Source: a virus. Taken from it: a DNA stretch of 38,372 bases. The notes under the pieces were generated by a model that worked only from the letters and a program-made list of their open reading frames with translations, made no database searches and had not been told where the DNA came from. This document shows, in pieces, positions 1-35,838 of the stretch; position 1 is the stretch's first letter, and each line of letters starts with the position of its first letter. Location of the stretch: UHGV virus genome UHGV-0143060, one strand, 5' to 3'. The translations under genes and the position numbers were made by a program.

Positions 1-1128
1 CCATTTGTAAGCGTGGATTTTGTACCTCGTAATAATTGGTTCTATTTTAACATAAAAGCTAATACTAAAAAAGAAAGCCTTTTATCTTCTACTGATTTAA
101 CAACAGCTTTGTTGGCGGCTTTTACTAAAATAACAACTGTAGTTAATGAGATTAACCATTTTTGCCCATTAGATGTGTCAGTTGTTATCCCTGTTCATAA
201 TCGTGAAAAACTTATTCTTAAATGCATTAACTCACTTAATAACCAAACAATTAATAAGGATCGCTTTGAGGTTATTTTTGTCGATGATTGTTCAAGTGAC
301 AAAAGCATTACTGCTATAGAATATAATATATCACCGGATATTAACTACAGAATTATTCGCCGAGAAATTGGTTCAGGTAACGCTTCAACCCCGAGAAATG
401 AGGGGATAAAAGCAGCAAAAGGACGTTATATTTTCTTCATGGATTCCGATGACTATATTGACGAAACTCTTCTTGAGAGAGGGGTTCATATTGCTGATAA
501 AAATAATAGTGATATTGTTTACTTCAAAATTGCATCAGATGGTAATCGCGAGGTGCCTATCCGTCCATACAAGGTGAAAATTGTAGATAAGGCAGATATA
601 ACCAAGCATCACCTCTTGCGGTCGTTAACTATTTTCAAATTCTTCCGAAGAAATATGCTTAAAGAGCATAACATTCTCTTCAACCCAGCTATCACCGTAG
701 CTGAAGATAAAATATTTATGGTTCAATCTCTATCTGTAGCAAACAATATATCTATTCTTGCTGACAAAGATTATTATCATTTAACATTCCATGGTAATGG
801 TCATTTATCAAGGCAAAAATTTCCTCTTGAAGATAGACACTTCATTCTTAACTCGGTTATTAACACGATTTACTTTTGCGGAAAAACTAACGAAGAAAAG
901 GCCAAGCTTTACAATGCGTGGCTGGTGATATGCCTTGAAATGATGGAAAAGGTATGTGGTAAAGCAGGTGGCAACGAGCAAAAGAAAAGGATGTTCTTTA
1001 ACATGCTCTCAACCACTTTCAACATCCGCTCAGATTTAGTAAATCAGGATATGATTTATACCCCTCAGCGTAAGTTCATCAAACCTTTTTTACAAAATAA
1101 TTATGAAGGTTTTATAGCTGAAATTTAA
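1..1128 (+). CDS. Family 2 glycosyltransferase (cargo/moron); frame is open to the window edge so the 5' end may be incomplete
   Basis: GT2 signature VVIPVHNREKLILKCINSLNNQT...FEVIFVDDCSSDKS and DXD-like FFMDSDDYIDE; visibly AT-rich; no stop between position 1 and the GTG at 13; about 55 codons precede the GT2 core. Confidence 0.7.
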   Translation, partial: PFVSVDFVPRNNWFYFNIKANTKKESLLSSTDLTTALLAAFTKITTVVNEINHFCPLDVSVVIPVHNREKLILKCINSLNNQTINKDRFEVIFVDDCSSDKSITAIEYNISPDINYRIIRREIGSGNASTPRNEGIKAAKGRYIFFMDSDDYIDETLLERGVHIADKNNSDIVYFKIASDGNREVPIRPYKVKIVDKADITKHHLLRSLTIFKFFRRNMLKEHNILFNPAITVAEDKIFMVQSLSVANNISILADKDYYHLTFHGNGHLSRQKFPLEDRHFILNSVINTIYFCGKTNEEKAKLYNAWLVICLEMMEKVCGKAGGNEQKKRMFFNMLSTTFNIRSDLVNQDMIYTPQRKFIKPFLQNNYEGFIAEI

Positions 1129-1174: not shown

Positions 1175-3820
1175 TCAACCATTTAGTGTTAACTTTAATA
1201 ATTTTTCCAGATTATTAATCTTTGATGTGATATTGGCAATATCCTGCTCATGGTGATGATATAATGCGCTCATTGCCAGAAACATTAACTCGTCATAGCG
1301 CACTGATAATTTTCTTCCTGATTCCACAATTAACCTTACTTCACCAGTTTCATACTCTTCTTCCTCTGTGATTTCATCATACTGACCAGACTCTTCATCA
1401 ATTAAAATTTTTCTGGTCACATTTCTTGTTGCATAGACTTTCTCATACTCATCATCCCACTCTTCATAGCAAAGAACCCCATAAGAAAATGCATCAAGCC
1501 CCTCAGATTCAAAGATGGATTGTATATCTTGCGCAATTACACCGATATGCTCACGCGCTGACAAGCCTTTTTCTTTTACAGCATCCTTCATTCTGAATTT
1601 TTTTATCAGCGGGTAAATAGCCATTCCAACCCGTAGTTCTGCATCAGATAATGAAGCTTCATCCTGCTTGTAATTTCTGTCGCTGGTTACAATGGGGCTA
1701 TTATTTATATACAGGTTTCTGACAGTATTCGACTGTGTACCAATATCATAAAGATTTGAACCTGATGGTCGAAAATGACCTAATTCTGTTAATACCCATC
1801 TGTCACGCAAGCCGTCAATCTCTCCCATGGTTCCAAAGTAGAAAGCAACCGGGATATTGTCTCCGGAAGGATTACCTCTTGTGACGCATTTAATGTGTGC
1901 GCATTGCACAGCCTTACTACCTGTATCACCGGCCCATACATGAGTACCCAATACATCCCCTGTCTGCAGAGCTCCAAAATTATCAGTTGATACAACACCA
2001 GAGCGAGACTTATACATTATTGCTCTTGGTCCTTCTGCGGTGTCTGACTGATGCCGGGAAACCCATGAGTTGCTCATCCCTTCCGTGCCGTTTGAAGCTA
2101 ACTGCATTCCACCAGTAATTCCGCCATCAAGAAACAATATAGGGTTATCCCGGTTAGTTTGAATACCCTTTCTTGTTGGCCAAACTGTCCAGTGAAAAGT
2201 ATCATTGTATTCCCTTACTCCATATTTGAACTCCGGGGAGCCAGAACTATGAAGACCAGTATTACTGGATACAGAACGGCTTGCTTTGCTTTGCACTACC
2301 GAACCAGACCTGCCTATATCAAACAGATATACATTTTTCCCGTTCTCAGCAACTCCTTTATATGTGCATATTCCCAGCGTTAAAACATACCCACTCTCCG
2401 TTCTAATTACTGTTAGGGACTCAGGCTCTTTATAAACAGGAGTTCCTGTACTGTCAGATTTTGCTTCATCATCACCAACAGTTGAAATATCTACTCGCTC
2501 AATAAACCTGCCTGTTAAGTCAAATACGTAAATATAATTAGTCATGCCAACATACGTATGTGACTCAAGTATGTAAATGTATGCCCCATCGCAAGCAATT
2601 GATTGGGTAAATGCTTCTTGTGATGGTTTTTGATAGCTAAACTCAACTAAATAATCATCACTATAATCAGTTTTATGAGATCTGTTATTCCACATGCTGA
2701 CTATGTCGAAAACACGAACCGTGCAGGTAATTCCATCCGATGAAATTTTCTTGGCAAGTAGATAGTTTTCACAACTTGATACAGTTGGAGTAGAGCTTGC
2801 GCTCATTCCATCATAGGGGAACAACTTCCAGGTGATAAAACCTTCAGATACCCCGTTGGTTGTCCCTGTGTAACTCAATATATTTTCCATCGAAATACAT
2901 TGATTGGCGGCATCGGTTCCATAAGGCTTCGATGTCCACAGCACGACAGTACCATCAGGATTATGATGCAATCCAAGCCCCTGATGCCCAAGTTCAGTAG
3001 AACGGGTTCTGTCGTATCTTCCTAGTTCACCAGAATTCGTCACGTCAAAGGCATTAATGCAATAACCGTATGCTGTGGTAGATGATAAAGTAAAAATCTT
3101 GTCGTTAATTTCATCATAACAACACCCCTGAATGACCGCATATAAACCACCCGCACCTTCAGTTCTGCGCAACGTGTGTCTGGTGTTATATACTTTTGGC
3201 ATTCCGGAAAATATCAATGGCTCTCTTTTATCTCTTAATTTAAGATCACCAATCGCAATTCGTTTACTGCCATCACGAATAAAAGAACCATTTATATAGC
3301 TATTTTCAATAAAACTTTTAGTAACAAAAAATGCTCTTCCACTTAAATCAATAACCCTATTTTTTATATCCATTTCCAACGCGACAAATGCTTCAGTATC
3401 ATCGCTAATCCCATCCCCCTTAGCTCCAAAATAAAGAGGAGACATATTTAGCATATCATTTGATAATACTTTTTGTTTAAACTGATCCGGGTCATACTTC
3501 AGCACATTAGGAAAATAGAACTGCTGTGCACCATACGCATCATAAACAGCCATAGAATGGCCTTGCACGGTAACGAATTTGGCAATCTGTCCGTTATATA
3601 CTGGATACCCTGCGGCATTGATGACGATTGGCTGTGCAACATGAACGTGAGAACCATCTTCGTTCTCTACATAAACCTGAATCTGGTTTTCAGGATTTAC
3701 CGGGTCAGTGTCAATTTTACCGATATAAATTTTGCCATTGGCTACGGCTTTAAAAGAGCGGGCCATAGTGAAGAGTTGCGAAGGCATACTCACTACAACA
3801 TTGGCTGTAATGTCTGTCAT
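1175..3820 (-). CDS. Tailspike: P22 gp9-like head-binding N-terminus, beta-helix/pectate-lyase-like receptor-degrading body, C-terminal S74-type intramolecular chaperone domain
   Basis: First ~110 aa ([34 protein letters not shown]...) match P22 gp9 as recalled; [16 protein letters not shown] motif; C-terminal SDAELR...GVIAQDIQ resembles endosialidase-type chaperone domains. Confidence 0.85.
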
Positions 3821-3920: not shown

Positions 3921-4823
3921 TCAGTAGTTATGTACTGAAGGAGGTAATTCTTTATTCTTAAGTCTCATCCATGCGGAAAGATTCGTTGGTCCGTCTGGCT
4001 CATTGATATCAACATCTCGTGAGTGATTGATTAAAACGTCTCTCGCTATATCGATAATACGGGAGAACTCATAACCGCAGTCATGACATCTGCCGGAATA
4101 GTTCGATTGAATTTGTTTCAGCGCCGGATACAGTTCGCGGAATAATGCCTGTGAGCGGTTGGCATAATCCCATAGCCATACAAGGCTGTTTGCTTCTTTT
4201 GCAGAAAGCTCGTTGGTTTTCTTCTCTTGTTTGCCGATGAACTCACCTTCAAGCACTACCCTGTGGATGTACTCTACGGCTTGCGGTATCTGAGATGCAT
4301 CAAGCTCTTCAATACTTTCCACATTGAAACGCTGATGAATCATTGCATAAGCTTCTGGGTACATTAGATGCTTTTTGCTGACTAGCATATTTACAGCATC
4401 ACGAAGCGGAGTCCTGTCATCAACAGATGTTTTCTTACGTGCATTTTCTGCCTTTCCCTTTGTCCAGTAGTCATGCAGTACAGTAAAGCATTCTTCCTGG
4501 TACTGAATCAGTTTATCGCGGATGTCAGCTCGAACTTTCTCAGGGTTGATGCTGAACAGCCATCCATTTAACTTCTTCAAAGGAAGGCAGAGTAGCTTAC
4601 GAAGCTTCCCATCAGCGGCAACCATATTCATATGAATACAGTTGAACTTATCTAGTTGTTTCATAAGTTTTTGTTGCTGAGTACCCCAACTCATTCCAAG
4701 GTTTTCAACGATTGGCTTCATCGCAACGTATGCAACTCCGGCAGCCATGGCGGTGATAATTTGCTGACCGTTGAATGGTACGTAAGAGGTGTTCACTGCT
4801 TCTAAAATTGCTATACTATTCAT
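3921..4823 (-). CDS. ant: Antirepressor Ant (immI)
   Basis: [21 protein letters not shown]... resembles P22 Ant; ATG at 4823 has a GGAGA RBS and gives 300 aa; the tabulated ORF starts at an upstream TTG. Confidence 0.8.
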
Positions 4824-4891
4824 GTTGGTTTTTCTCCACGGATTTACTGACAACCGAAGCCCTGACTGTTCCCGCAGTTGGGGCTTCCACT

Positions 4892-32220: not shown

Positions 32221-32375
32221 GTTTTACAGATAACTGGTCAGACGAAGAATTCATTCGTCAGATGAAAGAATTAATCGGCAACGAAGGAGATATTCATGTC
32301 ACTTGCAACCACGGTGAAGGAGAGCAAGTTACAGAGACGCATGTACACGCAGAAAGCTCTCTGGTATCGCCATAA
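32217..32375 (+). CDS. Small hypothetical protein (kil-position), 52 aa
   Basis: ATG overlaps the upstream stop; MSFTDNWSDEEFIRQMKELIGNEGDIHVTCNHGEGEQ. Confidence 0.4.
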   Translation: MSFTDNWSDEEFIRQMKELIGNEGDIHVTCNHGEGEQVTETHVHAESSLVSP

Positions 32376-32474
32376 TGGCGACCGCGAAGGAATGCGGGTA
32401 TGCCTTAATTTGTCCCGAGTCGAAGTATTAAATCAGCGTTATTTCCTTGGGCCATGTCCATTCTGAGGTGAATT

Positions 32475-34578: not shown

Positions 34579-34869
34579 ATGAAAACAATGAAGCTAAACA
34601 TCGACCTCGGAAAATACGTTATTACCGGAACCAAACACGATCTGATTCTTAGCGAAAGAGGAATTATCAAAGAAGGCGAGAATGCAGGGAAAGAAACACT
34701 AAGTCGTATCGGTTATTACAGCAAGTTTGAGCATCTGGTTAAAGAGTTATGCAACCGTGAAATCCTGTTATCTCAGGCGCAGACGCTACAGGATATTCAG
34801 CAGCATATCGAAACTTTAGGTATGTCACTTAGCATGGCTATTGACCAGTTCATGGAGAGTAAATCATGA
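34579..34869 (+). CDS. Hypothetical protein (96 aa)
   Basis: GAGGAA RBS then ATG at 34579; tabulated ORF begins upstream and overlaps the previous gene. Confidence 0.45.
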
Positions 34870-35033
34870 GAGGACTTGCATACAATCCCGGCATTCTTCC
34901 GGCAGAAATGATTATTCGCCAACGCATAAAGCCAATGCCATCGAGAGAGGAATTGCTTAAAAGAAATTCTTTTCCATCAGTGAATCAAAACAAATATCTG
35001 AATGCGATGTGGCGCAAAGGAGGCAACCAGTGA
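34866..35033 (+). CDS. Hypothetical small protein (55 aa)
   Basis: ATGA-coupled to the upstream gene; hand-translated [55 protein letters not shown]. Confidence 0.35.
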
Positions 35034-35227
35034 GCGAAATTAATTACCAGGCACTGCGTGAAAAAGCAGAGAAAGCAACGTGTGGTGTGTGGTCGCTCGA
35101 ATATGGAGAGGGCCGATTTGATGGTGATGATGCACTAATTCATCGCGAGGCTGCTGGATATATTCCCATTTGCAGAATTGAAGGAGCGCATCCAGAAAGC
35201 GGTTTCGATGAAGATTTCCAAATGTAA
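35030..35227 (+). CDS. Ea22-like protein, N-terminal segment ending at an in-frame TAA
   Basis: AGGAGG RBS then GTG at 35030 (GTGA overlap with the upstream stop); [20 protein letters not shown]... Confidence 0.45.
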
Positions 35228-35518
35228 CAGCAGGCCAATGCTGAATTCATCGCCGCAGCCAGTCCAGCTACTGTGCTGGCGCTGCTGGATGAACGGGAAA
35301 GAAACCAGCAATACATAAAACGCCGCGATCAGGAGAACGAGGATATTGCGCTAACGGTAGGGAAACTGCGTGTTGAGCTTGAGGAAGCAAAATCAAAACT
35401 CAACGAGCAACGTGAGTATTACGAAGGTGTTATCTCGGATGGAAGCAAGCGCATAGCCGCTCTTCTTTGCAAGGACAATCTTGTCAGCACCACGAACATT
35501 GAAGGTGAAAGAAGATGA
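35228..35518 (+). CDS. Continuation of the same reading frame after the single stop ([22 protein letters not shown]..., coiled-coil); no RBS of its own
   Basis: Same frame as 35030-35227; first possible start codon is GTG at 35273 with no Shine-Dalgarno sequence. Confidence 0.4.
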
Positions 35519-35838
35519 CCACATCGCATTCTGCTATTACCCAGGAAAAAGCCTTCAACATACTCGAACGACTAGAGACGCTCGCTACGGAGGAGGAGAT
35601 ATCCCCGGAGAAACTGGTTGCGTTCAGCCGTGTGATATTGCGTCGAAAGAACGATATGGAGCGGCTGACATCTGGCGCTCCATCCTTATCAGTCAGGCGA
35701 ACACTTTGTTGCAGCTTCTGCAACAAATCCCAGTACGCCGTCAAAAAGTTAATTGCTGGGGACGCCGTTTTCATCTGCGACGAGTGTGTGGATGTGTGCA
35801 ACAGAATTATCCGGGGAGAGAAAGAGGGATCAGCATGA
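35515..35838 (+). CDS. Small protein with C-terminal ClpX-type C4 zinc-binding domain
   Basis: [34 protein letters not shown] aligns with the E. coli ClpX N-terminal zinc-binding domain ([34 protein letters not shown]) as recalled. Confidence 0.7.

Follow-up and report, generated by a model that had tools for sequence, protein, structure and literature searches.

Does an Ea22-like reading frame that meets a stop codon after 65 codons and then continues at once in the same frame encode two proteins, one protein made in two lengths, or only the remains of a gene? We addressed this question for a locus in the 38,372-nucleotide virus genome UHGV-0143060, the whole of which is here called the window and to which all positions refer. 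The window is the genome of a P22-like (Lederbergvirus-like) E. coli phage, and the features of the locus described below lie on the plus strand.

An in-frame TAA interrupts an otherwise open reading frame

The frame begins at GTG 35030, and an AGGAGG Shine-Dalgarno (SD) sequence (35018–35023) lies 6 nt 5′ of this codon. The duplex computed with the anti-SD sequence is worth −11.6 kcal/mol at this start, against a window median of −1.5. The GTG also overlaps, as GTGA, the stop codon of the upstream DUF2737 gene (34866–35033, 55 aa; PF10930, 110.6 bits), which suggests that translation of the Ea22-like frame is coupled to that of this gene. Translation then proceeds for 65 codons to a TAA at 35225–35227. 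Past this stop the same frame stays open for 96 sense codons (35228–35518) up to a TGA at 35516–35518, which overlaps, as ATGA, the ATG at 35515 of the next gene. An initial annotation, made from the sequence, had described this start with its good ribosome-binding site, the stop, the uninterrupted continuation and the overlap with the next gene, and all of these positions hold; its figure of 97 further codons is correct as to the open frame but counts the final TGA. At the window's stop-codon frequency, 96 codons would stay open by chance with a probability of about 0.015; independently of this figure, homology decides the reality of the downstream frame.

The stop cuts a single Ead_Ea22 domain in two

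The Pfam family Ead_Ea22 (PF13935; IPR025153) is matched by both halves of the frame above its gathering score of 27 bits. The 65-residue piece (35030–35227 with its stop) aligns with profile positions 1–53 at 36.1 bits and the downstream piece with positions 56–138 at 93.5 bits, and when the stop is repaired the complete sequence covers positions 1–138 of 139 at 133.4 bits. Thus, both halves are parts of one Ead_Ea22 domain, and the TAA cuts a single domain in two. The earlier impression that the downstream part resembles the core of ead/Ea22-like proteins is borne out by this match and by our alignment with lambda Ea22, in which a 58-residue stretch of the downstream part is nearly identical to the central coiled-coil region.

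How does the locus compare with the Ea22 genes of lambda and of the Stx phages Phi24B, 933W and P27? Those genes follow the recombination genes in the early-left operon, and the early-left accessory location is also found here, between recombination genes and xis/int. The N-terminal helix, with a shared 10-residue sequence, is a further likeness. The stop itself falls within an N-terminal insertion that the window gene has in common with Stx-type Ea22 and that is missing from lambda (our lambda alignment; insertion as described in PMC10834534). [quoted passage not shown] The first two are present in the window gene, according to the lambda alignment and a structural proxy. Unlike lambda and Stx Ea22, however, the window frame is interrupted at codon 66 and the C-terminal domain is missing, only a 19-residue tail standing in its place; moreover, the phage that carries it is P22-like and not lambda-like. 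The pro-lysogenic activity and tetramer formation attributed to the family come from experiments on the lambda, Phi24B and P27 proteins (PMC7093339, PMC10834534).

As the structural proxy we used the AlphaFold (AF2) model of a 227-residue homologue (P0003) with 98% identity across the region in common. The model contains a helix at residues 60–76 and a long helix at residues 79–148, and its confidence over residues 13–59 is low (mean pLDDT 62), too low to judge the folding of the 65-residue remnant. Projected onto this model, the stop would delete the entire long helix 79–148.

The TAA stands in place of an invariant glutamate codon

In DNA alignments, GAA lies under the TAA in ev017, vB_EcoP-720R6, POCJ13 and plasmid pTW10722_119, with flanks that are otherwise conserved, and E66 is invariant across 38 aligned homologues. 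One E. coli protein (P0001) equals the window protein over residues 4–143 except for E66. More than 7,500 database proteins match at E ≤ 1e-20; the best 120 of these are all longer than the window gene (186–281 aa), and all seven sequences retrieved from among them continue through codon 66. A 26-mer spanning the site has at least 120 IMG/VR matches in its GAA version, and its TAA version has none in IMG/VR and none in one-genome-per-species GTDB. Likewise, neither the IMG/VR loci nor the protein database searched yielded a relative with a stop at the codon-66 position. Since the TAA aligns with GAA in all intact homologues examined and P0001 is otherwise identical, the lesion is a single nonsense mutation, a G-to-T transversion at 35225 that turned GAA (Glu66) into the ochre stop TAA. 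The rest of the gene is undecayed, with no second lesion in the downstream 96 codons.

These comparisons answer the main question put by the initial annotation, which had taken the locus for a nonsense-interrupted Ea22-like gene: the position is a sense codon in every intact homologue examined, the homologues run on past it, and the downstream part has no usable start of its own. Two IMG/VR loci (L103 and L119) in which an ORF seems to start at "MEQQANAEF" were considered as a natural two-gene arrangement and rejected, being frameshifted copies. Because homologues have GAA at this codon, the interruption at codon 66 makes the locus a pseudogene of the family and not a functional member. We therefore regard it as very probable that an Ea22-like accessory gene of a P22-like E. 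coli prophage was inactivated by the G-to-T change and is now an ordinary pseudogene.

Are the two fragments, or a readthrough product, still made?

The best-surviving alternative, itself improbable, is a functional split in which a 65-residue and an 81-residue fragment are both made and one or both are still active. The second fragment would arise by termination and reinitiation at GTG 35273, 46 nt past the stop, and the fragments might act, for example, by pairing with the Ea22 paralogues of co-resident prophages. Several observations are compatible with such a split: the downstream frame is intact, GTG 35273 corresponds to residue 82, near the start of the modelled helix 79–148, E. coli genomes hold up to seven Ea22-like copies, the allele is present in many samples, and gene callers have annotated the 81-aa ORF (35273–35518) in five short contigs. 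The ribosome, however, would find little to work with at this codon. GTG 35273 is the sole in-frame ATG, GTG or TTG after the TAA, it has no SD sequence (anti-SD energy +0.9 kcal/mol, against −11.6 at the true start), as had been noted from the outset, and it lies inside a predicted local hairpin. Furthermore, the arrangement is missing in all divergent homologues. The TAA is confined to sequences that are 100% identical over the gene, which gives no sign that the split state is under selection and no evolutionary evidence that it has been maintained. The local RNA fold (z = −2.6) coincides with sequence conserved at the protein level and is without a known role, and the 90% cluster that holds the 81-aa ORF is chained, heterogeneous and uninformative. 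An internal promoter or terminator was rejected as an explanation of the split, as no promoter-like or terminator-like site was found on the plus strand between 34500 and 36000.

Somewhat less probable still is that the nonsense allele owes its persistence to a benefit, with the 65-residue fragment or a low-level reinitiated 81-residue coiled-coil fragment modulating the full-length Ea22 paralogues of co-resident prophages. If this were so, interference by the fragment would tilt the lysis/lysogeny decisions of those prophages.

Could ribosomes instead pass the stop? Programmed or suppressor-dependent readthrough of the TAA, giving a short and a full-length isoform, was the second possibility raised by the initial annotation, and we consider it more doubtful again. 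The two frames are exactly continuous, the downstream part is undecayed, and the base after the stop is a C, a comparatively weak termination context at +4 in E. coli; this +4 C would nevertheless hardly amount to a readthrough signal. Of the three stop codons, UAA leaks least in E. coli, and both release factors recognise it. The stop is not conserved among relatives, at least 120 IMG/VR loci and all aligned homologues having GAA instead. TAA is a normal terminator here, ending 15 of the 36 confident window genes, and a search for Rfam recoding elements was negative. No tRNA gene is present in the window and therefore no phage suppressor; stop-codon reassignment and a phage suppressor tRNA were rejected on these grounds. 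Readthrough into two isoforms is unsupported, the stop being derived in one near-clonal lineage. Even taken together, the functional split and readthrough retain only a small share of the probability, and the ordinary pseudogene remains the preferred reading.

The TAA allele recurs in independent samples

The weakest alternative, that the TAA is a sequencing or assembly error in a gene that is really intact, is effectively refuted and hardly credible. In its favour, the allele differs by a single base from hundreds of GAA-bearing relatives, and a search of 5,426 complete RefSeq E. coli genomes gave no copy of it with high identity and coverage. Against it, nine loci retrieved from eight or more separate ENA and SRA samples all have the TAA and are all 100% identical over 35030–35518. 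The 65-aa product has also been deposited with the genomes of at least two E. coli isolates (OYA87956.1 and OYA99015.1) and with one viral MAG (DAL98251.1), and a substitution is atypical when set against homopolymer-type errors. Recurrence in independent assemblies thus settles the possibility of a sequencing error, which the initial annotation had also considered.

How widely is the allele distributed? The TAA version of the site-spanning 26-mer matches one human-gut metagenome contig, in which 14.6 kb align with the window at 99.986% identity. Further carrier contigs, from different ENA and SRA runs, were found by exact look-up of the 65-aa and 81-aa products, and they bring eight more loci with the TAA and 100% identity over 35030–35518. 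The 65-aa product is present on 28 contigs, the longest of 4.9 Mb, including E. coli GenBank entries. Of the 24 contigs read for this product, 22 share the window context; the remaining two (Logan contigs L131 and L132) break off exactly after codon 65 and have other gene neighbourhoods. We rejected these two as evidence of the TAA, as a selection artefact of the exact-sequence look-up; their ends are probably assembly breaks at repeated Ea22 copies. In one TAA carrier (L129), a small gene at 32313–32445 is swapped and the downstream end is different. Because its neighbourhood differs, the allele has outlived at least one nearby mosaic exchange. Taken together, the sequence data show a real, inherited TAA allele of limited distribution in a near-clonal prophage lineage.

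Public records list the halves separately, the 65-aa piece as a "hypothetical protein" and the 81-aa piece as an "Ead/Ea22-like protein" (DAL98251.1 and DAL98206.1; OYA87956.1).

Probable consequences of the mutation

What would the nonsense change do to the prophage? In the early-left (recombination-to-xis) region of this P22-like E. coli prophage, ribosomes entering at GTG 35030 would release a 65-residue fragment without the entire coiled-coil helix, which bears most of the family signature. The next 288 nt would go essentially untranslated. This in-frame remainder (35228–35518), with the codons for the last part of the N-terminal region, for the long coiled-coil helix and for the 19-residue tail, is probably not translated. 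The next gene (35515–35838) would then be translated from its own modest SD sequence (−4.4 kcal/mol) and not by coupling. Whatever its size, the pro-lysogenic contribution of the short Ea22-like protein would be lost. Deletions of ea22 in lambda and Phi24B are viable and lead to a shorter latent period, a larger burst size and lower host survival (PMC7093339); because they only shift the lysis/lysogeny balance, the phage is expected to tolerate the loss of its Ea22-like protein.

Two observations could be held against the pseudogene. More than 20 assemblies carry the allele, one of them (L129) with a different mosaic neighbourhood, and a strictly deleterious change might not persist in this way; hitch-hiking in a successful prophage accounts for this persistence equally well. 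The absence of a second lesion downstream would be compatible with selection, and recency of the mutation explains it as well. The locus is best annotated as one Ea22-like pseudogene and not as two hypothetical proteins. It would also supply studies of the pro-lysogenic role of Ea22 with a naturally occurring ea22-null allele from a P22-like E. coli prophage in circulation. Beyond annotation its significance is small. The gene family is known, non-essential and highly mosaic.

A short tail and a mosaic junction

Was the gene a typical family member before the TAA arose? In typical homologues, a conserved 23-residue segment is followed by a variable C-terminal domain, often ending in GIRIKGE. 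In the window gene this segment lies at 35387–35457, and after its KRIA only 19 residues follow (35458–35518), in place of the usual domain with its 45 to 170 or so residues. The missing domain had not been mentioned in the initial annotation.

The same tail (ALLRKDN.ASATNIEGERK) occurs in ORFs of E. coli phage-plasmids of 107–120 kb, CMS-2020a (133 aa) and pTW10722_119 (155 aa), where it also meets the same ClpX zinc-finger gene in an ATGA overlap. DNA identity to the phage-plasmids is about 97% from 35387 onwards (megablast). Unlike the window frame, the ORFs of CMS-2020a and pTW10722_119 are uninterrupted, and their N-terminal or middle modules differ from those of the window gene. The 155-aa ORF of pTW10722_119 is annotated by PGAP as a pseudogene "missing C-terminus", and the related phage-plasmid PhiR41_1 has a full 176-aa gene. 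The nearest intact short-tail forms are those of the phage-plasmids, with a different middle module; no intact "parent" with the same tail was found among the 120 best protein matches, nor did complete E. coli genomes yield an intact copy that matches closely.

The boundaries of the megablast pieces and alignments with PhiR41_1 and pTW10722 place the segment 35387–35457 as the part common to two gene types. To its 5′ side the gene is of lambda/Stx-type Ea22, and to its 3′ side of phage-plasmid type. Because the type switches at the conserved segment, the segment is a mosaic recombination junction, and it seems to act as a crossover site between P22-like phages and phage-plasmids. By this comparison, the gene was already a short form before it acquired the TAA, made by recombination with a phage-plasmid-type module within the conserved segment.

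Gene neighbourhood and decay of the Ea22-like family

The Ea22 family of lambda and the Stx phages is highly mosaic and dispensable (PMC7093339). Ea22-like genes are abundant: one or more matches were found in about half of the complete E. coli genomes, with up to seven per genome, and 114 IMG/VR copies range from 114 to 340 aa in length, with extreme mosaicism. Among these 114 complete homologues, four are frameshifted (L057, L092, L103 and L119). Together with an E. coli protein (P0123), they resemble the window gene in being independent, single-lesion breaks of an Ea22-like gene in which the rest of the frame is recognisable; unlike it, they are frameshifts elsewhere in the gene, whereas the window lesion is a substitution to a stop. 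Decay of the Ea22-like gene family thus appears to be recurrent, and the window locus is one more data point for the view that modules are exchanged and genes decay rapidly in the lambdoid accessory region. Of the four IMG/VR frameshifts, two come directly behind LALLDE and the other two fall within the N-terminal part. The L057-type frameshift is also found as a 107-aa E. coli protein on three contigs (P0123).

Upstream of the Ea22-like gene lie genes for an Erf/Rad52-like protein, SSB, an exonuclease, Abc2 (anti-RecBCD), DUF5405 and DUF2737; the downstream genes include DUF551 and DUF4222, and the integrase follows in the related locus L129. Across the window we recognised Erf, SSB, Abc2, a C2-type repressor, N-like genes, an Ant/sar module and a tailspike with the P22 head-binding domain.

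The gene that follows the interrupted frame (35515–35838) encodes 107 aa, the last 36 of which form a ClpX-type C4 zinc finger (PF06689, 57.5 bits); the protein belongs to phrog_6797, of unknown function. The same gene is present in the phage-plasmids CMS-2020a, PhiR41_1 and pTW10722_119, and we found no literature on its product. Going by its domain content, a free ClpX substrate- or adaptor-binding domain of this kind could interfere with host ClpX.

Elsewhere in the window, a full-length match to the sar RNA, the P22 immI antisense RNA (RF00262, 91.5 bits), lies at 4824–4891 on the plus strand and adjoins the Ant antirepressor gene (3921–4853, minus strand). In the 881-aa product of the tailspike gene (1175–3820, minus strand), the P22 head-binding domain occurs together with an intramolecular chaperone domain of the Peptidase_S74 type. 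Next to this gene, a gtrB-like family-2 glycosyltransferase gene (13–1128, plus strand) suggests O-antigen conversion.
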